Counted from the stretch's first letter, positions 2,397 to 20,832 are shown. The stretch: 24,277 bases of DNA from Zetaproteobacteria bacterium (GCA_021545595.1 JAJRVG010000054.1:1-24277), one strand, 5' to 3'. A program made the numbers and translations. The notes: generated by a model from the sequence alone, not told the origin.

Positions 2397-3140
2397 GTGC
2401 CCCAGAATTCAGAAAGTGATGGTGCCTTTGTGAGCACGTCTTCTTTGGAAAAGTTGAGGGACGTCGTTAGCAAAGGTATTGCTATTGATATTTATTTTGC
2501 TGAAGAGGCATTGTTTCTTGATGAATTTATTGGTGCGAATGCCACGAGTATAAACGATGCTTCATTCGGTCAGTTCTTTGGGAGTCACCAAAACCTTCTT
2601 GGTAGAGAACTTATTCTTGCTACAAATAGAGTATTTGAACATGGGAATGGTCGATATTCACTTAGAAGCATACCGGGCGCTCTCAAGATTTTAGAAGGTA
2701 ATACTGGCTCGATTGAAATTCAGAATCGAACTGCCTTGATTGATTACCTAGTCGGCAAAGAGATAGGCACATTTGAAGAGCTTGATTGTCATTCTGATGC
2801 ACAGCTAACAGAACAATTTGTTGAACACTTTCGATCTAGATTACCAAATGTTGATGATGCTCATGAGCTTTCTCCTGCTATTGGTAAGCTCAAAACAGTT
2901 AGGGATAAGCGGTTAGCTCATCATGAATCTGTTGAATCTGATGTCTCTGCTGCAACATATGCCGAAATCCAGCAGTTGCTTGAAATTGCAAAGGAGTTTC
3001 TCTCAATAATGGGAAGTGCATATTTGTCGACGGCGTATCAATTTGATGATGGGGACTTTCCGCTAACTTCTGATGCTAGGAGATCAACAACTTGTTTGTA
3101 TCGTCTTCTTCAGCAGGCAGGGATAGAAGTAGACAGATAA
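2397..3140 (+). CDS. Hypothetical protein with HEPN-type motif (AbiU2-like HEPN suspected)
   Basis: 247 aa, AT-rich, predicted helical, with LKTVRDKRLAHHE (R169-X5-H175). The family assignment comes from motif recall, not a search. The GTG start is uncertain. Confidence 0.6.
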   Translation: MPQNSESDGAFVSTSSLEKLRDVVSKGIAIDIYFAEEALFLDEFIGANATSINDASFGQFFGSHQNLLGRELILATNRVFEHGNGRYSLRSIPGALKILEGNTGSIEIQNRTALIDYLVGKEIGTFEELDCHSDAQLTEQFVEHFRSRLPNVDDAHELSPAIGKLKTVRDKRLAHHESVESDVSAATYAEIQQLLEIAKEFLSIMGSAYLSTAYQFDDGDFPLTSDARRSTTCLYRLLQQAGIEVDR

Positions 3141-3266
3141 TTTAAATTAGAGAATAAAAATGGCAGTATACTAATTAATTTGTGGCCTATGGTTTTTCAT
3201 CTAAACACTTAAAAAAGTATACTGTCCTCTTGTTTTCTTTACTTAATGGCTAAATGGAGTGGATAG

Positions 3267-4028
3267 ATGACTATATCAGTTTATCGAATGCCAATATCTA
3301 AAGAAATATTAGACAGCATTCCTGAAAAAGAGCGAAGTTTGTTCATTGTTGTTGGGCATCTCTCAAATGAACTCAATATTTTCAGTAAGCTATTCTTTTG
3401 GGCGTCGAAATTCTCTGATGAAGAACCTGTTCGTCATAAAGCTAACATAACTCAATCTCTTGCTTTAGCTCGGATTTTGGCCGGAAAGTTATTTGAGGGA
3501 TGGAATACGATCGGCAAGGTTTATTTTTCAACCAAACTATCGAAAGAATATCACTCTCTCCTTAGCCAAGAAGCCAAGGACGCCTTGAAAGAATTAGGTA
3601 AATATTTTGGGAAGGAAAACATAGTAATGAAAATTCGAAATGAGTTTGCTTTCCATTATGACCATAAGCAAATTACAGATGGGTTCAATGCTTTAAAGGT
3701 AGAAGAAGACTGGGAAATTTACTTGACGGAAGCCAATGGAAATAGTCTCTATTATGTTGCTGAACTTGCAGCAAACTATGCGTTGTTAAACAGCATTGAT
3801 TCTAGTGATCTAAAAACAGCAATAGAAACTTTAGTTGATGAACTAATTCAGATTGGTAAGTTGTTCACCACATTCCTTGGGGGCTGTCTAGTAGTCATAA
3901 GTCATCGCTATTTTCTCAACAAAGATGGAAAATTGGCCTATGAAGAGGAATGCCAATTGACCGACGCACCTTCAATTTATGACATAAGTATCCCATATTT
4001 TGTGGAAACATTGGCACCAAAACCATAA
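3267..4028 (+). CDS. Hypothetical protein with HEPN-type motif
   Basis: 253 aa, AT-rich, GGAG RBS upstream, with KIRNEFAFHYD (R124-X5-H130) in a helical context. Confidence 0.55.
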   Translation: MTISVYRMPISKEILDSIPEKERSLFIVVGHLSNELNIFSKLFFWASKFSDEEPVRHKANITQSLALARILAGKLFEGWNTIGKVYFSTKLSKEYHSLLSQEAKDALKELGKYFGKENIVMKIRNEFAFHYDHKQITDGFNALKVEEDWEIYLTEANGNSLYYVAELAANYALLNSIDSSDLKTAIETLVDELIQIGKLFTTFLGGCLVVISHRYFLNKDGKLAYEEECQLTDAPSIYDISIPYFVETLAPKP

Positions 4029-4084
4029 AGTAGTTCTGTGGCTTTGGGTCAAAGGGAAATCGGGGACAGTTTACCTGTTTCGGG

Positions 4085-4717
4085 TTATTCGCTCTGCCAG
4101 TTCTGGATTCGATCAGCGTAGAAAGACTCCTCTTTCAGTTTGCCTGCATCAGGGATGAAGACGGCCATCTGTGATGTTTGAAGGTGTTCATCCCAGCCAG
4201 CCAGAAACTGGTGGTAGAGTTCATCCATCATATGTTTATTTTCAGCAGCTTTAGGGCCGATGTACTCTTCGCTGGAGGCGATCTCACCACGTACGGCAAT
4301 ATCAAGGTTGCCGATGATTTTGGCGTTATTGCTATCGAGTGAAACAAACTGGCCTGCAATATTCAGATAGAGCAGCCATGGTGTGCCCGGTTTCAAAGAT
4401 CTCATCTCAGTCAGCATCTGCTCTTTGTCCGGCAGGGGAGCTGCACTCAGGCGGTGTAGCACGGCGTGTGAATAGATACCGCGCACAAGGAAATCAAACG
4501 TCCCGGTCTTCTCTTTGATGATCAGGCCGTGATCGCTGTCTTTTTTCAGCTTGCGACATGTCCAGCCTTCGGACTCCGAGGTTTCAAAGATGCGTGCATC
4601 CTCATCAGAAGCACTTTCAGCATAGGTGCACGGTCTCCAGCTCTTTTGATCCTGTTGCAGGCGCCACGCCTTGTCGCCTGTGGCTGAGAGCGCATCAATG
4701 GTGAAAAAAAATTTCAT
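4085..4717 (-). CDS. Hypothetical protein, translationally coupled to rnd
   Basis: 210-aa ORF with host-like composition and a GAGGAGG RBS. Its ATG overlaps the rnd stop (ATGA). No family recognised. Confidence 0.75.
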   Translation of the reverse strand: MKFFFTIDALSATGDKAWRLQQDQKSWRPCTYAESASDEDARIFETSESEGWTCRKLKKDSDHGLIIKEKTGTFDFLVRGIYSHAVLHRLSAAPLPDKEQMLTEMRSLKPGTPWLLYLNIAGQFVSLDSNNAKIIGNLDIAVRGEIASSEEYIGPKAAENKHMMDELYHQFLAGWDEHLQTSQMAVFIPDAGKLKEESFYADRIQNWQSE

Positions 4718-10476: not shown

Positions 10477-11658
10477 ATGGTTCCGGAATTTATTTTTTCA
10501 TCAACGCCTCATATCCACTTTGGTGCTGGCAGACGATCAAAACTGAATGAATTGATCAAAAACTATGGAAAAAAGCTGCTTCTGGTGACCGGGGCAAACT
10601 CATTTGATGAGTCCGGTCGCTGCCAGGAGCTGCAGAAAGAGCTGCGTAATCATTTTGATCTCAGACAGGTTAGAGTCCCGGGTGAACCTTCGCCTGAAGT
10701 TGTGGATGAAGCGGTGACAGCATTTTCCCTGTTCTCTCCCGATTGCGTCGTTGCGGTTGGTGGCGGCAGTGCCATTGATGCGGGCAAGGCGATTGCCGGG
10801 CTTCTGCCGGGTGGCGACTCGGTTCTGGAGTATCTGGAAGGCGTGGGCAGGGGAAGGGCATACCGGGGGCCATCAACACCGTTTATTGCTGTTCCTACCA
10901 CAGCAGGTACGGGCGGGGAGACGAGCAAAAATGCAGTCATCTCTATTGTTGGTGATCAGGGTTTTAAAAAATCCTTTCGTCATGAGCTGCTGGTGGCCAG
11001 ACATATCATTCTTGATCCGGAGCTGACGCTGGAGTGTCCGGCAGGCCTGACGGCTGCCTGTGGCATGGATGCATTAACACAGCTGCTTGAGTCCTATGTC
11101 TCGATTGGTGCAGGCCCAATGACCGATGCTTTGGCTATAAGTGGGCTGGAGAGGGTGCGGAACTCTTTGCTGACTGCTGTCGAGGATGGTGATGATATTG
11201 ATGCCCGTGCAGATATGTTGTACGCATCATCACTGTCAGGGCTGACGCTGGCAAATGCTGGCCTGGGTTCCGTTCATGGGCTCGCCTCTCCGCTGGGGGC
11301 CTATTTTCCAATCCCACACGGTGTGGTTTGCGGTACACTTCTTTTTGAAGCAACAGAGGCCAATATTGTCGCCATGTATGAGAGGGCGGCAGATCATCCA
11401 GCACTTGAGAAATATGCTGATGCAGGTCGCCTGTTTACAGAGCAGGAATCACTGGACTCATACGCTGCACGTGAGGCACTGCTTGGCATACTGCAAGCGT
11501 GGAGCGGACGGCTGCAGATGCCACGACTCTCCCGGTTTGGTGTCAGCGAAGAGGATATTGATCGCATTGTGGTGGCAAGCCGTGGCAACAGTATGCAGAC
11601 CAATCCTGTAAGGCTTACTGATCAGGAGATTGCCGGGATTGTTCGTCGTCGACTGTAG
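10477..11658 (+). CDS. Iron-containing alcohol dehydrogenase family protein
   Basis: AVGGGSAIDAGK, AVPTTAGTGGE, GMDALTQLLESY and GLGSVHGLA...IPHG motifs. Confidence 0.92.
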   Translation: MVPEFIFSSTPHIHFGAGRRSKLNELIKNYGKKLLLVTGANSFDESGRCQELQKELRNHFDLRQVRVPGEPSPEVVDEAVTAFSLFSPDCVVAVGGGSAIDAGKAIAGLLPGGDSVLEYLEGVGRGRAYRGPSTPFIAVPTTAGTGGETSKNAVISIVGDQGFKKSFRHELLVARHIILDPELTLECPAGLTAACGMDALTQLLESYVSIGAGPMTDALAISGLERVRNSLLTAVEDGDDIDARADMLYASSLSGLTLANAGLGSVHGLASPLGAYFPIPHGVVCGTLLFEATEANIVAMYERAADHPALEKYADAGRLFTEQESLDSYAAREALLGILQAWSGRLQMPRLSRFGVSEEDIDRIVVASRGNSMQTNPVRLTDQEIAGIVRRRL

Positions 11659-12208
11659 GCTTCTCTCTGCCCATCAGTTCGGGCCATGCGTCACGGATGT
11701 ATTCATAGCCGGACCATAAAGTAAGGATTGCGGCTACCCAGAGCAGGAATAGCCCGACTGAATGCATATCGATTCCAGCCAGCTCTATATGCAGAAGCAG
11801 GGCGATGATTGAGACCATCTGGGCCGCTGTCTTCATTTTACCAAGTATGGAGACGTGCACGGTGGTAGCGTGTTCAGCCAGCCACTCGCGCAGGGCGCTG
11901 ATGGTGATTTCACGCCCGATAATAATCATGGCAAGCAGTGCAGGAACCCGTTCTGCTTCAACCAGCACCACCAGGGCAGCTGCCACAAGCAGTTTGTCTG
12001 CAACAGGGTCAAGGAAGCGTCCAAAAGCGGTCTCTTCACCCCGTGTTCTTGCAAGGTATCCGTCCAGCCAGTCGGTCACGGAAGCCAAAGCAAAGATAAA
12101 GGAGGCTAGAATGTAACCTGAAAATCCAGGAAGATAGAAGGCAATGATAAAAAGAGGGATGAGCAGGACACGCCCGATTGTCAGCTGATTTGATACTGTC
12201 CATTGCAT
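11615..12208 (-). CDS. pgsA: CDP-diacylglycerol--glycerol-3-phosphate 3-phosphatidyltransferase
   Basis: NQLTIGRV, ASVTDWLDGYLAR...FGRFLDPVADK (CDP-alcohol phosphotransferase motif) and REITISALRE...GKMKTAAQM. Start set at ATG 12208 (MQWTV); the track's 22-aa extension looks spurious. Confidence 0.95.
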   Translation of the reverse strand: MQWTVSNQLTIGRVLLIPLFIIAFYLPGFSGYILASFIFALASVTDWLDGYLARTRGEETAFGRFLDPVADKLLVAAALVVLVEAERVPALLAMIIIGREITISALREWLAEHATTVHVSILGKMKTAAQMVSIIALLLHIELAGIDMHSVGLFLLWVAAILTLWSGYEYIRDAWPELMGREKPTVDDEQSRQSPDQ

Positions 12209-12330
12209 ACCCTTATTTATGACTGATCCTGATAAGTTGGTAAAGTTTTTTTCTCTCTCTGTCTCTGCATGCACCCGGTTAAAACGGTAGTTATTGGGGC
12301 TAAGTTGTTGACCTTAAAGGGCCTGCGCTA

Positions 12331-12544
12331 TAATCCACAGAAACTGTGGATAACTTCGTGGATAACTCTTCAGTTTTTTAACTAAAATATGACTCTGTCG
12401 GAGAGTATAATCTATTGCCTAATTAATAGGCAATAGATAAAGATCAATTATTTCAATAAAATGCAGTATAATATGTGCGTTATGATTGAAGCAAAGCCAC
12501 TAATTAAAGAAAATTTATCTTTTTCACCTTCGGGCAGTGGATAA
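12331..12544. promoter_or_regulatory. DnaA-box cluster element, copy 1 (DARS-like): boxes at 12331-12339, 12345-12353, 12357-12365 and 12536-12544; Fis-consensus site 12417-12431; IHF-like site 12451-12463
   Basis: TAATCCACA-gaaac-TGTGGATAA-ctt-CGTGGATAA, then GCCTAATTAATAGGC, TTTCAATAAAATG and AGTGGATAA. The boxes are read directly from the sequence; the DARS function is inferred. Confidence 0.7.
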
Positions 12545-12550
12545 AGATCA

Positions 12551-13018
12551 TCATTTGGTAATATTGATCTGCCTGAGCGCTTCATAGACAACAGCAGAAC
12601 AGGCAGATGAAAGATTGAGCGAACGAACGGGCAGGTCGCTGCGCATAGCCAGTTTTATCGGTGAGATCTGTCGGCGAATAAAACCGGGCAGGCCTCTCGA
12701 TTCAGGGCCCAGAACCAGTACGTCTGCCACTCTGAATTCTACCTCCCACGTTAATGTGGTTGCCTTGGTGGAGAGGGCATACCAGTTTCGGTTCTCTCCA
12801 AGCCCGTCTCTTACGCTCTGCCAGTCCGGATACTCTTTCACTTCAAGATACTCCCAGTAGTCCAGCCCGGCACGTTGAAGCTGTTTTTCATCCAGACTGA
12901 ACCCCAGAGGGTGAACCAGATGCAGCTGGCAGCCTGTGCAGGCGCAGAGACGGGCAATGTTGCCCGTATTCGGAGGTATTTCCGGCTGATAAAGGACGAT
13001 ATGAAGAGGGGGAGTCAT
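12551..13018 (-). CDS. trmL: tRNA (cytidine/uridine(34)-2'-O)-methyltransferase, SpoU/SPOUT family
   Basis: HIVLYQPEIPPNTGNIARLC, RAGLDYW, LGPESRGLP and RSLNLSSAC..VVYEALRQ motifs. Start is ATG 13018 or TTG 13027. Confidence 0.93.
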   Translation of the reverse strand: MTPPLHIVLYQPEIPPNTGNIARLCACTGCQLHLVHPLGFSLDEKQLQRAGLDYWEYLEVKEYPDWQSVRDGLGENRNWYALSTKATTLTWEVEFRVADVLVLGPESRGLPGFIRRQISPIKLAMRSDLPVRSLNLSSACSAVVYEALRQINITK

Positions 13019-13153
13019 ATCCGACAACTCTGGTTGGCTTGCCCGGATCAGTCTATGGCTATTTGAATGGGTGCCAGACGTGGCTATTCAGTTAGCTGAA
13101 GTCACCTTTTTGAGGGCTTCTTAACACTGATTTGAGATCAGAGTAGCCCGTTT

Positions 13154-13855
13154 TCAGATCTCTTCACCTGACAACAATTTTGCCGCAGCTTCATGGTCTA
13201 CATGCCGAATATCATGGCCGCGCTCTATATAGATAAGCATTTCAGAAATATTCGTGGCATGATCAGAGATACGTTCAAGGTTCTTGGCAACATTGGAGAG
13301 AATGATAGAGGCCGTGATATCTCTCGGGTCTTCTATCATGTAAGTGAGCAGTTCACGATACATACGCTTATAAAGCACATCAATACGTTCATCTTTTTCA
13401 ATCACTCTCATAGCCAATTCAGTATCACCACGAGAGAAGGCATTCAGTGTGCGATTGACCTGCTTCTGAACCTTTTTTCCCATCGTGCTGAGATTGGAGA
13501 ACTCCTTGGGTGGATGTTCCAGCGAACGAAGTGTGCCTTCGGCAATACCTGCTGACAGGTCACCCATACGTTCCAGATCTGTAACCACCTTAATGATACC
13601 CATGATGAATCGCAGGTCACCTGCTGCGGGTTGCCTGCGTACCAGAATATCACGGGTCATCTCGTCACACTGAACTTCCAGCGCATTGATCGCCTTGTCA
13701 CGCTCGATAGTTTTCTTTGCAAGTGCTTCATCCTGATCGAGCATTGATTTTACGGCATGGCCAATGGCGCGTTCGACCAGACCACCCATTGAGAGCACAA
13801 GCTCTTTAAGTTTGTCGAGTTCTTCATCAAAGCGTTTAATAGTATGTTGTGGCAT
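13154..13855 (-). CDS. phoU: Phosphate signalling/uptake regulator PhoU
   Basis: Two PhoU repeats (RQPAAGDLR...TDLERMGD; KNLERISDHATNISE); last gene of the pst operon. Confidence 0.96.
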   Translation of the reverse strand: MPQHTIKRFDEELDKLKELVLSMGGLVERAIGHAVKSMLDQDEALAKKTIERDKAINALEVQCDEMTRDILVRRQPAAGDLRFIMGIIKVVTDLERMGDLSAGIAEGTLRSLEHPPKEFSNLSTMGKKVQKQVNRTLNAFSRGDTELAMRVIEKDERIDVLYKRMYRELLTYMIEDPRDITASIILSNVAKNLERISDHATNISEMLIYIERGHDIRHVDHEAAAKLLSGEEI

Positions 13856-13865
13856 AGTTTTCTCC

Positions 13866-14627
13866 CTATCCGAATCGGCCGGTTATGTAGTCTTCGGTCT
13901 GTTGTTTTTCAGGCTGGGTAAAGATCGTGCCCGTTTCGCCAAACTCAATCAAATCACCCATGTAGAAAAAAGCTGTCTGGTCAGAAATGCGGGCTGCCTG
14001 CTGCATACTGTGGGTTACCATGATAATGGTAAACTCCCGCTTCAGTTCATCAATCAGCTCCTCAATCTTAGCTGTTGCGATTGGGTCCAGTGCCGAGCAA
14101 GGCTCATCCATTAAAATAACATTGGGTTGAACAGCAATGGTGCGTGCAATGCAGAGACGTTGCTGCTGCCCACCTGAAAGGGCGGTGCCGGGTGTATGAA
14201 GTTTATCCTTCACCTCCTTCCAGATGCTTGCCCGGCGAAGTGCAGTCTCAACCAGTTCATCCATATCAGAACCGCTCCCGGCAAGGCCGTGAATACGTGG
14301 CGCATACGCGACGTTTTCATAGATACTTTTCGGAAACGGATTCGGCTTCTGAAATACCATACCTACATGAGTGCGGAGCTGTACCACATCCACTTCCGGC
14401 GCATAGATATCATCCCCATCAAGCAGAATCTGGCCTTCGATACGGCAGCCGGGGATACGGTCATTCATTCTGTTCAGGCAGCGAAGCAGCGTGGATTTAC
14501 CACAGCCGGACGGGCCGATGAGAGCGGTCACTCTCTTTTCAGAAAACTCAATATCAATGCCATGCAGAGCCTCACTCTCTCCATACCAGAGTTTAAGGTC
14601 TTTAATATTTACCTTGGAAGTGTTCAT
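13866..14627 (-). CDS. pstB: Phosphate ABC transporter ATP-binding protein
   Basis: [46 protein letters not shown] and [10 protein letters not shown] motifs. Start is ATG 14627 just after the pstA stop. Confidence 0.97.
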
Positions 14628-14628
14628 C

Positions 14629-15819
14629 CTACCACCTTCTTTCAAAATGTTTACGCAGATATACAGCCAGACCATTCAGGCTGAGAAGCACAGTTAAAAG
14701 CACAAGGATCGCTGCTGCGGTGCGCTCCTCGTATGCACGGAGAGACTCTCCCGCCCACGTATAAATCTGGGCGGGAAGAACAGTTGCTGCTTCTAGAATA
14801 TTATCAGGGGCATCCGGAACATAGGCCACCATACCGACTATCAGCAGGGGGGCTGTTTCGCCCATGGCCTGAGCCAGTCCGATGATCGAACCAGTCAGGA
14901 TACCTGGCATGGCCAGTGGTAGTACATGATGCCATGTGGTTTGCCAGCGTGATGCTCCAAGTCCGAAAGCCGCTTCACGAATGGAACTGGGTACAGACTG
15001 CAGAGCGGCACGGGTAGCAATGATAATAATCGGTAGTGTCATCAGGGCCAGAGTCAGGCCACCAGCCAGTGCCGATGACCGTGGTACTCCTGCAAAATTG
15101 ATAAAAATAGCCAGCCCAAGCAAGCCGTATAGAATGGATGGGATGGCGGCCAGATTATTGATGTTAACCTCAATAATACGGGTAAAGTGATTGTCTTCAG
15201 AAAATTCCTCTAGATAAATGGCTGTCATTACACCAATGGGAACAGCTATGAGCATGGTGATAAGCAGTGTAAATATCGAACCAACGGCAGCAGAGAAAAT
15301 ACCGGCATTCTCGGGCAGTTTCGAGTCGCCGGAAGTGAAAAATCTAATATTGAACACTTGACGTATCCGACCCTCTTCAGCCATGGCATCGACTATACGT
15401 TGATATTTCGATTTCAGACCATGGCCATTATGCTGTTTAATATATTGATCTACACGACTATCGGCAGGCACCCATTGTTTAATATTGTTACCGATCAGCT
15501 CCGGATGTCTCTTCAGGTAGACGGGAAGGGTGCGCAACCAGGCACGACTAACCACCCGACGCAATTTATGATCCACAGCCTTGTTGTAGTTCGTTTTGGC
15601 AGCTTCAACATAGTGAATGTTTACTTTCACTTCGGTTTGGTAAAAAGCAGGAACCGCCTGACCGATGATGTCGACAAAAAAGAAAACCAGAAATGCCAAT
15701 GCCAGACCAAGTGCAGTTAAACCATACCAGTGGAACCGGCTATCAGCACGCTCACGCCGTTTTTGACGTAGTTTTTTCTCATCACTAATGAAATTGTTTG
15801 GTTGAGTAGAATTATTCAT
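14629..15819 (-). CDS. pstA: Phosphate ABC transporter permease PstA (extended N-terminus)
   Basis: [35 protein letters not shown] and [10 protein letters not shown] motifs. Confidence 0.95.
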
Positions 15820-17056
15820 ATTGCTGCCTGAATTTTCGTACTACCATGATTGAAATAATATTGAGTATCAGTGTGGCGATCAGCAGTACCAGTCCGAGTG
15901 CAAAAGCCGACAGTGTGAAGGCTGAATCGAACTCCTGGTCACCCGTTAGTGCTTCAACAATTTTTACTGTCACTGTGGTCATGCCTTCAAGAGGATTGGC
16001 GGTTAGATTTGGACGCAAACCCGCTGCCATGACTACAATCATAGTTTCACCGATAGCACGTGATATAGCTAGCAGGCAGGCGGAAACAATACCTGGAAGT
16101 GCAGCAGGCAAGACAATATGCCGGATGGTTTCCGCCTTGGTGGTACCTAACGCCAGCGAGCCGTCACGCAGCGATTGTGGTACTGCGCGAATGACATCAT
16201 CGGATAGGGAAGAGATAAACGGGATGATCATTATGCCCATGATCAGACCTGGTGCCAGTGCATTGGTGTAATCGGCTTCCAGTCCGAACGTATGGGCGAT
16301 ATTTACAATTAACGGGCTAATAGTTATGGCAGCAAAAAAACCGTACACAACCGTTGGAATGCCAGCCAATATTTCCAACATAGGTTTGAGGTGACCGCGG
16401 GCATTATGTGATGCATATTCAGACATATAAATCGCAGCAAACAGACCGATTGGAACGGCTACCAGCATGGCAATCAGGGTGATCATGAAGGTGCCGGCAA
16501 AAATTGGTAGCGAGCCGAAAAGTGGTGGCGCTACGCTCTCATTTGTACGCCCGGCACCGATCAGAAAAGCAGTGTCCGGTTGCCACTGTGTGCCAGTGAT
16601 AAAATCCCATATCGGAATAACCTTGAAAAAACGAACGGATTCAAACACAACTGAGAGTACGATACCGATAGTAGTCAGGATGGAGATAGCTGCTGCAGTA
16701 AACAGCAGACCGCGCATAACTTTTTCAACAGCCTGTCGGGCACGGAAATTGGCATTGATATGACTTAAAGCAAACCATAAACCGGCACTACCAAGACCAA
16801 GAGTGGTGGCCAGCAGCATTGGAGCAGGTACGGTGAACAGATTGAATATATGCGCAATGCTGAAAAGTAGTGATACAGCCAGTGCAGGTAATGCTATCCA
16901 GCTGACAGCATACAAGCCGTAAAAACCGGGTCGTGAGTGCAGGCGGACATCATCAGTTTCAAATGACAGGGCTTTGCCGCGTCCCATCCAGAAAGCCATG
17001 AAAGATAAGGGAACCAGGCCACCAAAGAGCCAAAAAAATAGATTAGCAGTGCTCAT
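15812..17056 (-). CDS. pstC: Phosphate ABC transporter permease PstC (extended N-terminus)
   Basis: LEILAGIPTVVYGFFA, SLALGTTKAET and SRAIGETMIVVMAAG motifs; overlaps the pstA start. Confidence 0.95.
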   Translation of the reverse strand: MSTANLFFWLFGGLVPLSFMAFWMGRGKALSFETDDVRLHSRPGFYGLYAVSWIALPALAVSLLFSIAHIFNLFTVPAPMLLATTLGLGSAGLWFALSHINANFRARQAVEKVMRGLLFTAAAISILTTIGIVLSVVFESVRFFKVIPIWDFITGTQWQPDTAFLIGAGRTNESVAPPLFGSLPIFAGTFMITLIAMLVAVPIGLFAAIYMSEYASHNARGHLKPMLEILAGIPTVVYGFFAAITISPLIVNIAHTFGLEADYTNALAPGLIMGIMIIPFISSLSDDVIRAVPQSLRDGSLALGTTKAETIRHIVLPAALPGIVSACLLAISRAIGETMIVVMAAGLRPNLTANPLEGMTTVTVKIVEALTGDQEFDSAFTLSAFALGLVLLIATLILNIISIMVVRKFRQQYE

Positions 17057-17204
17057 AAAGTGTATGCAAAACTCCGTGTGTTATTCATGCGTCCCCTTTC
17101 TGGTTGATAAAATTAACAGGGTGGTCTTTGAAGACCATAATTCTGATTAATAACGGGCCACAGCTCATATCAAAACCTGATTACGCCTGTATGCCTTTTA
17201 TTGG

Positions 17205-17238
17205 AAAAACCAGCCGGAGCAAACTCCGGCTGGTTTTT
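17205..17238 (-). terminator. Strong hairpin (terminator or mRNA stabiliser) between pstS and pstC
   Basis: AAAAACCAGCCGGAG-CAAA-CTCCGGCTGGTTTTT, a perfect 15-bp stem including the A/T flanks, with a T run on each strand. Confidence 0.85.
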
Positions 17239-17263
17239 TAAAAGCGAGCGAATAGTCAGTACT

Positions 17264-18301
17264 TTATTTTTTTGCAAAGTCTTCCAGCTTTATACGAACC
17301 AGTGATTTCAGATGGCTGCGATAGTGATCACGCATTTCCTTTGGCAGCGGGATCAGACCGATGTCTGCACATTCACCCTCATCACCGATCATGCGCTCGT
17401 TCATGAATAGATTGGCATATTCGAGGATGCCGGGAACTTTCTTGATGTGAGACTGCTTGATGTAGAAGTAGAGTGAACGAGACAGTTTATAGGAACCGTC
17501 CTGAACAGTTTCAGGTGCCGGAGCTACACCCTCAATGGTAGCAGCACTTATTTTATCAGTGTTTTCAGCTAGATAGCTGTATCCAAAAATGCCCAGTGCA
17601 GCAGTGTCTTTGGTTAGCTTCCGTACGATCAGGTTGTCATTTTCACCACTTGGTATATAAACACCATCCTGACGGATTGCGTGAAAATGCTTAAAACCTG
17701 CATCGTTATAGACTTTCCAGTGCTTGGTGTTGTGCTTAAGGATCATGTCCTCGAACGCATCACGGGTGCCTGAAGAAGTTGGTGGGCCGTAGATGGCGAT
17801 CTTGCGGTGCGGCAGCCTGGCATTGATCTCATTCCAGTAGTAATACGGGTTATTGACCAGAACGGACTCATCTTTACTTGGAACTTTGGCAGCAACAGCC
17901 AGCAGAAGTTCTTTACGAGTCAGATTGATGGCAGCGGTAGTTTTGGACTGTGCAATGGCAATTCCGTCATAACCGACAACTATTTCAGTAATATCTTTTA
18001 CACCATTTTCCTGACATTTCTTGTATTCTGTACTCTTCATGCGGCGTGATGCATTGGTAATATCCGGAGTGTTCATACCATTACCTGCGCAGAACAGCTT
18101 CATGCCTCCACCTGAACCTGTAGACTCTACAACCGGAGTTTTAAATTTGGTGGTGGAGCCCAGTGTTTCAGCAGTATAGCTGGAGAATGGGTAAACCGTG
18201 GATGAACCAACGATCCTGATCTGATCACGGGCTTCTGCCTGACCGATGAAGGCAAGGCCAAGAAAAGTTGCTGCCATGAGAATGGCGTATTGTTTTTTCA
18301 T
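17264..18301 (-). CDS. pstS: Phosphate ABC transporter substrate-binding protein
   Basis: Signal peptide MKKQYAILMAATFLGLAFIGQAEA, then IVGSSTVYPF, STGSGGGMKLFC, NASRRMK and GPPTSSGTRDAF. Start is ATG 18301 after a GGGAG RBS. Confidence 0.96.
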   Translation of the reverse strand: MKKQYAILMAATFLGLAFIGQAEARDQIRIVGSSTVYPFSSYTAETLGSTTKFKTPVVESTGSGGGMKLFCAGNGMNTPDITNASRRMKSTEYKKCQENGVKDITEIVVGYDGIAIAQSKTTAAINLTRKELLLAVAAKVPSKDESVLVNNPYYYWNEINARLPHRKIAIYGPPTSSGTRDAFEDMILKHNTKHWKVYNDAGFKHFHAIRQDGVYIPSGENDNLIVRKLTKDTAALGIFGYSYLAENTDKISAATIEGVAPAPETVQDGSYKLSRSLYFYIKQSHIKKVPGILEYANLFMNERMIGDEGECADIGLIPLPKEMRDHYRSHLKSLVRIKLEDFAKK

Positions 18302-18332
18302 AGTTTGGTATCTCCCGAATGAATTTGGGCGC

Positions 18333-18366
18333 ACTGTACAACTCATTTGTGACATATATGTGTCAT
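18333..18366 (-). promoter_or_regulatory. Pho box and -10 element of the pstSCAB-phoU promoter
   Basis: The minus strand reads ATGACAC-ATAT-ATGTCAC (11-bp-periodic repeats resembling CTGTCAT), then 10 nt, then TACAGT. This matches PhoB-dependent promoter geometry. Confidence 0.8.
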
Positions 18367-18595
18367 TCGGGTAAATAAAATATCTCTTCAATACAGGCTG
18401 TCGATTAATAAACGGACTGTAACCGAAGCCATGCAGGTCGTAGGCGTCACATGGCCTGTTTTTTTGTCACGATATTTACTGTTGCAGGTTCAAAGTGCTG
18501 CTCATGGGCTCAGCGCTGTCTTGAACGAACGGCCACTTTTGGTGGTGGCCTTAGTCGACAGTGGGCATTTGTCTGCAAATGTAAGGGGTAGGGGG

Positions 18596-19249
18596 TTAAA
18601 TCCGTTCTGCCAGGCTGGTTAGAACCTTCGAGGTCAACTGCATGAACTGTTTGACCGGTTCAGGCAGAGGGGCTGCTCCCAGGCCGTGGGCCAGATCTGC
18701 ATGTCCCTGCTCATCAACCTTCATCTGCTCAACAATAGCAAGGCTTCTGCAGTCACTCTCAGGCAGGCGTTCAAGATGGCTGTCCAGATGACGAACTACC
18801 TGCTTTTCTGTCTCTTCCAGGAATCCGAGGTTCCAGCGGTCGCCTGCAACTCCGGCTGTGATTCCAATAGCAAATGAGCCTGCATACCAGAGTGGATCAA
18901 AAATAGAGGGACGTTCGCCCAACTCATCAAGTCTTCGACGACACCAGTTCAGGTGATCGCTCTCTTCAACAGAGGCATGATATAACTTATCTTTAAGTGA
19001 TGGGTCCCGGGCTGTGAGGCTCTGTCCATGGTAAAGTGCCTGTGCAGCCATCTCTCCGGCATGGTTGACTCGCATCAGGGCTGCTGCCTGCTGTTTTTCA
19101 GTGGCTGAAAGTGCAGTGTCATCACTGGATTTTTCTGCAGGGTAGGGGCGCTGAGTCGACTGTTTGCAAAAGATATTGTTCAGCGCCTTATCAACGTGCC
19201 CGACCAGGCTGTCTGCGAGTGAAAAGTGGCGGATTTCATGGCTGCTCAT
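18596..19249 (-). CDS. coq7: 2-polyprenyl-3-methyl-6-methoxy-1,4-benzoquinone monooxygenase (di-iron, Coq7)
   Basis: MRVNHAGEMAAQALYHGQ, EESDHL.WC..RL, GFLEETEKQVVRHL and MKVDEQGHA motifs. Start set at ATG 19249; the track's 50-aa extension runs through non-coding DnaA boxes. Confidence 0.94.
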   Translation of the reverse strand: MSSHEIRHFSLADSLVGHVDKALNNIFCKQSTQRPYPAEKSSDDTALSATEKQQAAALMRVNHAGEMAAQALYHGQSLTARDPSLKDKLYHASVEESDHLNWCRRRLDELGERPSIFDPLWYAGSFAIGITAGVAGDRWNLGFLEETEKQVVRHLDSHLERLPESDCRSLAIVEQMKVDEQGHADLAHGLGAAPLPEPVKQFMQLTSKVLTSLAERI

Positions 19250-19319
19250 ACGACGAAATCTACGCTTGAAATTTTTCCTCGCAACCCCTAACCACTGATA
19301 AAATAAAGAGTTAGAAGAT

Positions 19320-19532
19320 GCATCCACAGAAGTTGTGGATAACTTCGTGGATAACTTTCGGTTTTTATTACAGCAATATGACAAAATGAATAACTGCAAG
19401 ACAATGACTAAAAAATAGGCACTCCTATTATTTCATTTATATCAATATGTTACACGATTATTGTTTTAGCTTCTACGCAGAAAATATTGAAAGCGGCCCG
19501 TTTCTCTTTTTTACCGCATGAACGGTGGATAA
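19320..19532. promoter_or_regulatory. DnaA-box cluster element, copy 2 (DARS-like): boxes at 19320-19328, 19334-19342, 19346-19354 and 19524-19532; Fis-consensus site 19406-19420; IHF-consensus site 19440-19452
   Basis: GCATCCACA-gaagt-TGTGGATAA-ctt-CGTGGATAA, then GACTAAAAAATAGGC, TATCAATATGTTA (matches WATCAANNNNTTR) and GGTGGATAA. Confidence 0.7.
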
Positions 19533-19539
19533 CATCTTG

Positions 19540-20832
19540 TTATTGTTGGAAACAAAGGGATTTCGCCACCTCTTCTCCGCGCAGCACGGCTGCCTCAATG
19601 GTTGCAGGGAAATCACCGGGAAGGGGCGCTTCAGAGGCATCAATGATCATGCCAATGTTCATGCGCTGGTGTTTGGCGTTTACCAGTACCGTTGCACGCT
19701 GTTCTATGACAATTTTACTATGAATTGGTTGCACTGTTTCAATACCCGACAGCATGGCCAGCTCCTCACAGATAATCTGAATCAGCTCAGCCTTATTACC
19801 GGCCTCCTCAGCACTACCGGCGGCACTGATTACAGCGCAGATATGTTGTGCACCGTCTCTCGCTGTCTGTGATGAGACATTGAAGTACCACTGGCCTCTG
19901 GTGCCGATGCCACCAATCAGTGAGTCAGGAAGCGGGATATCAGCTTCAAACCAGAGGTGAACATTGGTGATCGGACCTGTTTTAACAGGCTCTTCAACGC
20001 CCAGGAGCCTGTTTCGTGCGTAGGCCGGCAGTGCGATTATCACGTTTCGGTACGGGCCCGTGGTGTTCTGGCTGTTCTGACTGGTATGGAGTTGGCAGCT
20101 GTTGCCTGCCTGTTCAATGCTTCGAATGGTTGTGCCGGTAAAGATGGAGCCTCCCAGACTCTGAAAACGTTGCTCAAGTGGCTTGATCACTGCTTCCGAG
20201 AGTGGCTTGTTGAACCAGCCAAGTCGTGCATGATCGTGGCTGGCAAATGCCTCACGCAGAACAGAGGCAAAGCTGTTGCAGTCTGCACCCTGCATCGGCT
20301 CATTCATCACGCCCAGACATAGTGGCTCAATCAGATCACGTTGCAGTGCGGGAGATATCTTCTCAGCTTCCATCCACTCTTTGACCGTTGCCACAGCTAC
20401 CTTTCTCCCGCTTCGATCCTTCATACTCCGATCAAGACGAAGCAGGCTCAGAAGGCTATCGACGTGGTGGCCGGGAAGCCGGTAGAGGGCTGCCATAAGT
20501 GCCAGTGGAAATGGCAGATATGGTGATGGAGCGAGGCAGAAGTGGCCGCGTTGCTCATCCCAGAGCGAAAGTTTCAGTGATCGTTGCCAGGTGATATTAC
20601 CATCTGCGCCAATGCTCTCCAGCAGTCTGCGTGTGGCCTTGTATGCTCCGATTAGGAGATGAGGGCCGTTATCGACCCACTCATTGACTCTACTGTCGTA
20701 AAAAGAGCGTGTACGCCCCCCCAGTGCGGGAGCTGCCTCATAGAGATGAACATCATGACCCTTCTCAGCCAGTCGGATGGCAGATGTCAGTCCACAGAGG
20801 CCGCCTCCGATAATGGCAATGGGGTATTTCAC
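19540..20832 (-). CDS. hpnE: Hydroxysqualene dehydroxylase (FAD-dependent)
   Basis: IIGGGLCGLTSA...EAAPALGGRTRSF, DNGPHLLIGAY and PATIEAAVLRG motifs; follows hpnCD. Confidence 0.9.
   Translation of the reverse strand: MKYPIAIIGGGLCGLTSAIRLAEKGHDVHLYEAAPALGGRTRSFYDSRVNEWVDNGPHLLIGAYKATRRLLESIGADGNITWQRSLKLSLWDEQRGHFCLAPSPYLPFPLALMAALYRLPGHHVDSLLSLLRLDRSMKDRSGRKVAVATVKEWMEAEKISPALQRDLIEPLCLGVMNEPMQGADCNSFASVLREAFASHDHARLGWFNKPLSEAVIKPLEQRFQSLGGSIFTGTTIRSIEQAGNSCQLHTSQNSQNTTGPYRNVIIALPAYARNRLLGVEEPVKTGPITNVHLWFEADIPLPDSLIGGIGTRGQWYFNVSSQTARDGAQHICAVISAAGSAEEAGNKAELIQIICEELAMLSGIETVQPIHSKIVIEQRATVLVNAKHQRMNIGMIIDASEAPLPGDFPATIEAAVLRGEEVAKSLCFQQ

Follow-up and report, generated by a model that had tools for sequence, protein, structure and literature searches.

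A stretch of 24,277 nucleotides from a Zetaproteobacteria bacterium (GCA_021545595.1, JAJRVG010000054.1:1-24277, hereafter the window) carries in two of its intergenic spacers diverged copies of a module of about 215 bp. Each copy consists of a core built from three DnaA boxes, a 17-bp dyad, a site of the integration host factor (IHF) type and a distal DnaA box. We consider it highly probable that these modules are a conserved DnaA/IHF platform and not an origin of replication. They may be, more specifically, nucleotide-exchange elements of the type of DARS2, one of the two DnaA-reactivating sequences of Escherichia coli, a reading that is the best supported of the mechanisms considered and for which we find the case evenly poised. 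It is suggested by the geometry of the core, by an overall plan shared with DARS2 and by a late-replicating position, and the main doubts come from a Gln208-to-Asn change in DnaA and from a different order of the accessory sites. An earlier interpretation made from the window alone (the sequence-only reading) had proposed a pair of DARS2-like elements with Fis and IHF as partners, in a lineage where none was known. The core geometry, the off-origin position and the IHF site of that proposal have held, whereas the Fis partner, the pairing and the uniqueness to the lineage have not.

Two copies of a four-part module

The two copies, with positions counted from the first nucleotide of the window, are composed as follows.

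12331..12544, plus strand: module copy A, the whole four-part element, in the trmL/pgsA spacer; orthologous position kept in many genera
12331..12339, plus strand: copy A DnaA box I, TAATCCACA, one mismatch, in inverse orientation to boxes II and III
12345..12353, minus strand: copy A DnaA box II, perfect consensus (TGTGGATAA on the plus strand), 5 bp past box I
12357..12365, minus strand: copy A DnaA box III, CGTGGATAA, one mismatch, 3 bp past box II
12416..12432, no strand: copy A 17-bp dyad, TGCCTAATTAATAGGCA, matching TGC-N11-GCA and the Fis consensus; candidate binder NtrC
12451..12463, plus strand: copy A IHF-type site, TTTCAATAAAATG, two mismatches to WATCAANNNNTTR, at the family-conserved offset of +118
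12536..12544, minus strand: copy A distal DnaA box IV, AGTGGATAA, the trmL stop codon being 7 bp away
19320..19532, plus strand: module copy B, the whole four-part element, in the hpnE/coq7 spacer; orthologous position kept in many genera
19320..19328, plus strand: copy B DnaA box I, GCATCCACA, two mismatches, inverted
19334..19342, minus strand: copy B DnaA box II, perfect consensus
19346..19354, minus strand: copy B DnaA box III, CGTGGATAA
19405..19421, no strand: copy B 17-bp dyad, TGACTAAAAAATAGGCA
19440..19452, plus strand: copy B IHF site, TATCAATATGTTA, perfect WATCAANNNNTTR consensus
19524..19532, minus strand: copy B distal DnaA box IV, GGTGGATAA, the hpnE stop codon being 8 bp away

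Both spacers are AT-rich and have in common a 35-bp core, ATCCACAGAA(AC/GT)TGTGGATAACTTCGTGGATAACT, at 12333-12367 and 19322-19356, just as the sequence-only reading had described; in copy A the three boxes read TAATCCACA-GAAAC-TGTGGATAA-CTT-CGTGGATAA. The offsets from box II that it had given for the remaining motifs are likewise exact in both copies: AATATGAC at +41 (12386 and 19375), a 15-mer matching GNNYAWWWWWTRNNC at +72 (12417 and 19406), an IHF-type 13-mer at +106 (12451 and 19440), a T-rich block at +169/+167 (12514 and 19501) and the fourth box at +191/+190 (12536 and 19524).

The 23-bp part of the core occurs twice in the window and not at all in 100 shuffles. Scanning the whole source assembly (1.36 Mb in 257 contigs, 69% complete) returns the full core at these two positions only. 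TTATCCAC 8-mers number 45 in the assembled genome against 40 expected, and clusters of at least three of them within 400 bp are formed only by modules A and B in this 69%-complete genome. Compared without gaps, the two copies are identical at 33 of 35 positions in the core and 14 of 17 in the dyad. Identity in the spacers between the blocks is only 40%, against 29% +/- 4% for shuffles, in keeping with the divergence between blocks that had been noted before.

Sites and spacing are conserved in the family and beyond

Judged by DnaA, the closest named relative of the lineage is an uncultured Zetaproteobacteria MAG with 65% identity, and we accordingly place the lineage in the Zetaproteobacteria. 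We compiled 95 genomes of the window's bacterial family, 48 of which are near-complete. A 33-bp core pattern, allowing at most two mismatches, is found in 79 of the 95 with 1-9 copies each, and the reversed pattern used as a control in 0 of 95. The trmL|pgsA and hpnE|coq7 spacers hold the module in many genera beside neighbouring proteins that are just 42-70% identical, which argues that the window copies are old paralogues at orthologous sites, with no recent duplication. The earlier suggestion of selection on sites and spacing is thus borne out, both being kept across the family at orthologous loci. That the two elements form a pair in the window is incidental: in other genomes of the family hundreds of kb separate the two loci, and there are additional copies. 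We also rejected a dispersed repeat resembling a miniature inverted-repeat transposable element, given two copies here and 1-9 per carrying family genome (terminal repeats were not looked for).

The spacing within the core is close to invariant. When any gap of 0-16 bp was allowed between TCCACA and TGTGGATAA in 48 family genomes, the head-to-head gap was 5 bp in about 78 of 82 distinct pairs, the other four having other gaps. We then stacked 56 distinct family elements without gaps, position 0 being the A of ATCCACA. Four conserved blocks stand out, namely the core (0-32), the dyad (+82/+83), the IHF site (+118) and GTGGATAA (about +203). The dyad TGCCTAA-N3-TTAGGCA is present within three mismatches at +82/+83 in 44 of the 56 elements (shuffles 0.000). 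The IHF block reads tATCAAt..gTTA, matching the IHF consensus, and a site within one mismatch is found at +117 to +119 in 30 elements (shuffles 0.004). Box IV is found within one mismatch at +190 to +220 in 52 (shuffles 0.011). A left-flank block, tAa.gg.tta at -18 to -8, is semi-conserved.

Two of the blocks that had been listed as shared fare less well in this stack: the T-rich block has no family-wide conservation, and the AATATGAC block is conserved at the genus level only and not across the family. The latter, as GAATATGAC (window 12386-12393 and 19375-19382; +53 from box I), is kept within the genus in both module types and may be a genus-specific extra site. Only the core, the dyad, the IHF site and the fourth box of the earlier list are therefore family-wide.

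The search was extended to 251 Pseudomonadota genomes, of which about 186 lie outside the family. We found the strict core in 48 of these (about a quarter), in some families in 5/5 or 8/8 genomes, and no occurrence of the reversed control. Of 15 elements from other families, 10 have a perfect IHF consensus at +114 to +120. Several also show, at +82 to +84, a site of the TGC-N11-GCA or Fis type and, around +190 to +205, a DnaA-like box. The four-part layout was found in 12 loci from other families. The same module is thus present in many other Pseudomonadota and is not unique to the lineage. In the papers searched, conservation of DARS is stated for close gamma-proteobacterial relatives of E. 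coli and for Vibrio cholerae only (PMC4245941, PMC5742627, PMC6090056), and the distribution found here suggests that DARS-like control of replication timing may reach far beyond the relatives of E. coli.

In one genome of another family, two complete modules follow each other in tandem at a distance of 465 bp (L217; G271:C1:5094451 and 5094916).

NtrC is a candidate binder of the dyad

The genes ihfA and ihfB are present with scores above the curated cut-offs, and the IHF half of the earlier proposal agrees with the gene content. The Fis half does not: searches with Pfam HTH_8 and with E. coli Fis found no stand-alone fis in the 48 near-complete family genomes. HTH_8 matched only members of the NtrC family and a response regulator of 181 aa that is RegA-like. 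With the E. coli Fis query, the best match in the 48 genomes is always the C-terminus of a frame of ~465-630 aa, bar two truncated hits in short frames. In the genomes checked, including that of the window, the long-frame protein is the NtrC linked to dusB, and the last 90 residues of NtrC from the window's genome are 39% identical to Fis residues 8-98. The 15-mers of the modules fit the Fis consensus, and Fis was rejected as partner of the dyad on the absence of the gene. The "Fis site" of the sequence-only reading turns out to be the more specific 17-bp dyad, which is also found at the dusB-ntrBC promoter.

The half-sites of the dyad vary independently across the family elements, and the dyad is for that reason better regarded as a protein site than as an RNA stem. 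A hairpin or terminator was rejected, there being no compensatory changes and no T-tract after the dyad, and neither spacer has an Rfam match to a known RNA down to E = 1.

At up to two mismatches the dyad occurs genome-wide at background level; what recurs from genome to genome is limited to AT-centred copies, those of the modules and that of PdusB. The latter, the one recurring copy outside the modules, lies upstream of dusB-ntrB-ntrC, at C138:11104 in the window's genome and likewise in five relatives that belong to three genera. The operon, dusB(nifR3)-ntrB-ntrC, occupies C138:7500-11120, and its promoter with the conserved dyad is shared with the divergent engB. A dusB-ntrB-ntrC arrangement is known from Alphaproteobacteria, and dusB-fis from Beta- and Gammaproteobacteria. 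The motif of NtrC is TGC-N11-GCA with an A/T-rich centre, and NtrC autoregulates at PdusB in S. meliloti (PMC10746234). Since the dyad recurs at the dusB-ntrBC promoter and fits this motif, we propose NtrC as the likeliest candidate for its binder, by way of the Fis-like C-terminal domain. No dyad was found upstream of glnA in five genomes, so it is the dusB promoter that by itself carries the NtrC assignment. The modules resemble NtrC enhancers of sigma-54 promoters in having a TGC-N11-GCA dyad with an A/T-rich centre beside an IHF site, and differ from them in the lack of a -24/-12 promoter past that IHF site, as well as in the missing dyad at glnA, two observations that speak against NtrC as the binder.

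Two further observations come from the same assembly. The dusB-engB region is present in near-identical form on two contigs (C138:10844-11381 and C148:515-1052), which suggests that strains are mixed or bins duplicated in it. At C151:11440-12270 (L197:2441-3271, minus strand) an open reading frame (ORF) of 276 aa fuses an IS200-like Y1 transposase domain to Bac_DnaA_C, and its product could compete for DnaA boxes.

Comparison with DARS1, DARS2 and datA

In E. coli K-12 the DARS1 core reads TTATCCACT-ATTCC-TGTGGATAA-CCA-TGTGTATTA and the DARS2 core, the position of which we fixed from the deletion primers in PMC4585315, reads TTATTCACC-TTTTC-TGTGGATAG-AGT-TGTGAAGAA. The core spacers of 5 and 3 bp named in the sequence-only reading match both elements; boxes I and II are opposed at 5 bp and it is this head-to-head pair that releases ADP (PMC6868365). 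Double DnaA boxes are found in E. coli at datA, polA, purH and other sites (PMC11317965). Because the pair of boxes II and III alone is such a generic double box, present at many E. coli targets, the diagnostic part of the core is box I in its inverted orientation at 5 bp.

The modules resemble DARS2 in several respects. In both, the three boxes of the core are spaced by 5 bp (head-to-head) and 3 bp (head-to-tail), an IHF site lies some 90-120 bp from box I, and another DnaA box follows at a distance of about 205 bp. Both also contain a site for a DNA binder of the Fis fold, are located in a spacer off the origin and span about 215-256 bp. For K-12 DARS2, mapped from the PciI landmark in PMC11724364, we place IHF-type 13-mers at +91 and +107, counted from box I, and at +209 a perfect box. 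DARS2 occupies the rppH-mutH spacer and DARS1 the bioD-uvrB spacer. DARS1 has the identical core geometry and, like copies A and B, lies just upstream of a gene start; it differs in needing neither IHF nor Fis and in having no conserved distal module (PMC11724364). Two other differences from DARS2 are that boxes I and III are near-consensus here and degenerate in E. coli, and that a carrying family genome has 1-9 copies.

Several observations weigh against a DARS2-type function. The order of sites is core, dyad, IHF and box, whereas in E. coli it is core, IHF and then Fis with box V; the distal box here points the opposite way to box V. There is no fis gene, and in place of a Fis site stands a defined palindrome, TGC-N11-GCA, that the dusB-ntrBC promoter has as well. 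Gln208 of DnaA is required for DARS activity in E. coli and is, with Leu290, Phe239 and Lys243, one of the head-to-head contact residues. In our DnaA alignment the position of Gln208 is Asn, while L290, F239 and K243 are invariant. A source of ADP-DnaA would be Hda, through RIDA; Hda-like ORFs, full-length (229-250 aa) in four relatives and partial in the window's genome, score 52-77 bits, well below a gamma-proteobacterial cut-off of 194.8. That such ORFs exist, and that L290, F239 and K243 are kept, counts in favour of the DARS2-type reading. To these must be added the resemblance to datA and the closeness to gene starts that are discussed below.

The first alternative is a datA-like sink or inactivator, which would titrate DnaA and, through IHF-aided hydrolysis of DnaA-ATP (datA-dependent DnaA-ATP hydrolysis, DDAH), lower the initiation potential. 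We consider it improbable, if the strongest of the competing explanations. In sequence terms the module is a high-affinity DnaA cluster, and in common with datA it lies off the origin and combines a double box at 3 bp with an IHF site, which is essential at datA, and a distal box. What speaks for DARS is that box I is inverted and strictly conserved at 5 bp, a hallmark of DARS which, to our knowledge, datA does not have. The location differs as well: datA is origin-proximal, acts just after initiation and inactivates DnaA, whereas the modules are near the terminus in two complete relatives, as would suit a late-acting activator.

Adjacent genes, transcription and autonomy of the module

The genes next to the two copies are the following.

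11615..12274, minus strand: pgsA, on the box-I side of copy A; start uncertain, with a GTG at 12274, 57 bp from box I
12551..13027, minus strand: trmL, its stop codon abutting copy A box IV
18596..19249, minus strand: coq7, on the box-I side of copy B; likely ATG at 19249, 71 bp from box I
19540..20832, minus strand: hpnE, its stop codon abutting copy B box IV

The order, with all genes on the minus strand, is pgsA, copy A, trmL, phoU-pstBACS, coq7, copy B and hpnE-hpnD-hpnC. A longer listed coq7 ORF extends into the core of copy B.

This setting invites a second explanation, that DnaA, IHF and an NtrC-type protein regulate the adjacent pgsA and coq7 and so tie the synthesis of membrane lipids and quinones to the replication cycle. 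Each of the two copies is located 57-105 bp upstream of a pgsA or coq7 start, the left-flank block is semi-conserved and E. coli DARS1 overlaps the uvrB promoter region. In addition, pgsA makes acidic phospholipids, which are themselves able to recharge DnaA. Recharging by this route is mentioned in PMC11317965. We nevertheless regard the explanation as decidedly unlikely, as no conserved promoter accompanies the module. Matches in sigma-70 scans of the modules were at chance level, as were those to sigma-54: a loose GG-N10-GC match downstream of the IHF site was found in 13 of the 56 elements, against 15% of shuffles, at no shared position. The fixed geometry of 215 bp, with a box abutting the stop codon of the upstream gene, also exceeds what a simple operator needs.

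The extra copies in the family argue in the same direction. They occur in all four orientations of flanking genes, apparently convergent pairs included (ORF calls being rough), beside endA, recG, an rnhA-like gene, an ABC-F gene and an ssuA-like gene. These genes are unrelated, and a functional theme among them was rejected. One genome, G094, carries nine modules (L237-L245), six of which are copies of a ~400-bp unit (about -95 to +290 from box I) that are 70-94% identical and flanked by unrelated genes. The varied orientations and the spread in G094 therefore argue against a purely local promoter role. Because the module is found in all four flanking arrangements and has multiplied independently in G094, it is, to judge from its placement, an autonomous unit able to spread.

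Two modules of G084:C1, near 1,152,468 (L185) and 1,378,915 (L188), adjoin recG and the rnhA-like gene. Loss of recG or rnhA permits DnaA-independent replication in E. coli; the neighbourhood may be a coincidence.

In the window a phoU-pstB-pstA-pstC-pstS operon (13154-18391) separates trmL from coq7, the modules being 7 kb apart. In four genomes of this genus just 2.2-3.3 kb separate the modules, and in one family genome trmL directly adjoins coq7; for this reason the pst block looks like an insertion between them. Elsewhere in the window an AT-rich island at 2397-4717 has a GC content of 0.36-0.45 compared with about 0.52 nearby. None of its ORFs (2397-3140, 3267-4028 and 4085-4717) has an NCBIfam match, and the last two are also without a Pfam match.

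Position relative to origin and terminus

Since the contig of the window is unplaced, we read the chromosomal position from two complete relatives, G021 and G084. G021 is a single contig of 2,301,665 bp starting at dnaA. Over roughly the first 1.1 Mb the GC skew has a positive sign, and from 1.2 Mb onward to the contig end a negative one, with switches at dnaA and at ~1.15 Mb; the modules of this genome are at 811,597(+), 1,093,441(+) and 1,414,254(-). In G084 (2,537,610 bp) the skew switches at dnaA and between 1.26 and 1.33 Mb, and the modules are at 942,656(+), 1,152,468(+), 1,337,247(-), 1,378,915(-) and 1,599,288(-). Locating the origin by GC skew and dnaA, as had been proposed, thus puts it at dnaA and the modules away from it, 0.8-1.6 Mb from dnaA and its skew switch. 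All eight modules lie 37-357 kb from the skew terminus. In all eight the direction from box I to box III points with the fork, plus on the right replichore and minus on the left. Inversions symmetric about the origin-terminus axis keep both distance and polarity, and terminus proximity and fork co-orientation are for this reason to be taken as a lead rather than as a statistic.

A polar function in the terminus region, with tightly bound DnaA and IHF forming a fork-pausing or chromosome-organising site, would account for eight of eight modules lying within about 360 kb of the terminus and being oriented with fork travel. We judge it very unlikely. The eight come from two genomes only, the modules of which are orthologous, with distance and polarity preserved by symmetric inversions, so that the effective sample is small. 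We know of no replication-fork barrier built of DnaA, and E. coli DARS1 and DARS2 share no polarity rule.

A chromosomal origin formed by the two elements, bipartite or not, has next to no probability and was rejected. They are AT-rich, and the assembled part of the genome (69%) holds no other cluster of at least three DnaA boxes. Against such an origin, the skew switches at dnaA, 0.8-1.6 Mb from the modules in the complete relatives, the copy number ranges from 1 to 9 per genome, and the dnaA-dnaN spacer, likely to be oriC, has near-consensus DnaA boxes and AT-rich DNA of its own.

Proposed mechanism and significance

If the modules are DARS2-type exchange elements, each spacer of ~215 bp would form a self-contained nucleoprotein platform away from the origin. 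DnaA on the consensus box II would recruit further DnaA, head-to-tail at box III and head-to-head at the inverted box I. IHF, bound ~85 bp beyond box III, would bend the DNA and return DnaA bound at box IV toward the core, and a dimeric protein, most likely NtrC through its Fis-like C-terminal domain, would occupy the 17-bp dyad between core and IHF. The head-to-head DnaA pair would then release ADP, as in E. coli DARS, and apo-DnaA would rebind ATP, raising the initiation potential. Because the modules are near the terminus in the complete relatives they would be duplicated late in the replication cycle, and this late duplication may boost recharging ahead of the next round of initiation.

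It is conceivable, though on balance doubtful, that the module is an ancient DnaA-recharging device of the Pseudomonadota with NtrC as its original accessory protein. Lineages such as the present one, having retained dusB-ntrB-ntrC and never gained fis, would have kept NtrC on the dyad. The role of Fis at DARS2 would have been inherited from the DNA-binding domain of NtrC, as would the place of fis behind dusB. Modules close to the terminus and co-oriented with the fork would time the recharge to late replication. Were this so, the initiation potential would be coupled to nitrogen status.

Only in E. coli has it been worked out how DARS controls the nucleotide state of DnaA. The lack of fis and the dyad shared with the dusB-ntrBC promoter jointly lead to a concrete, testable hypothesis about which protein takes the role of Fis in these bacteria and about how Fis gained that role. 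If the modules do act as DARS2 does, the recharging of DnaA by DNA would be a general proteobacterial mechanism and not an enterobacterial speciality.

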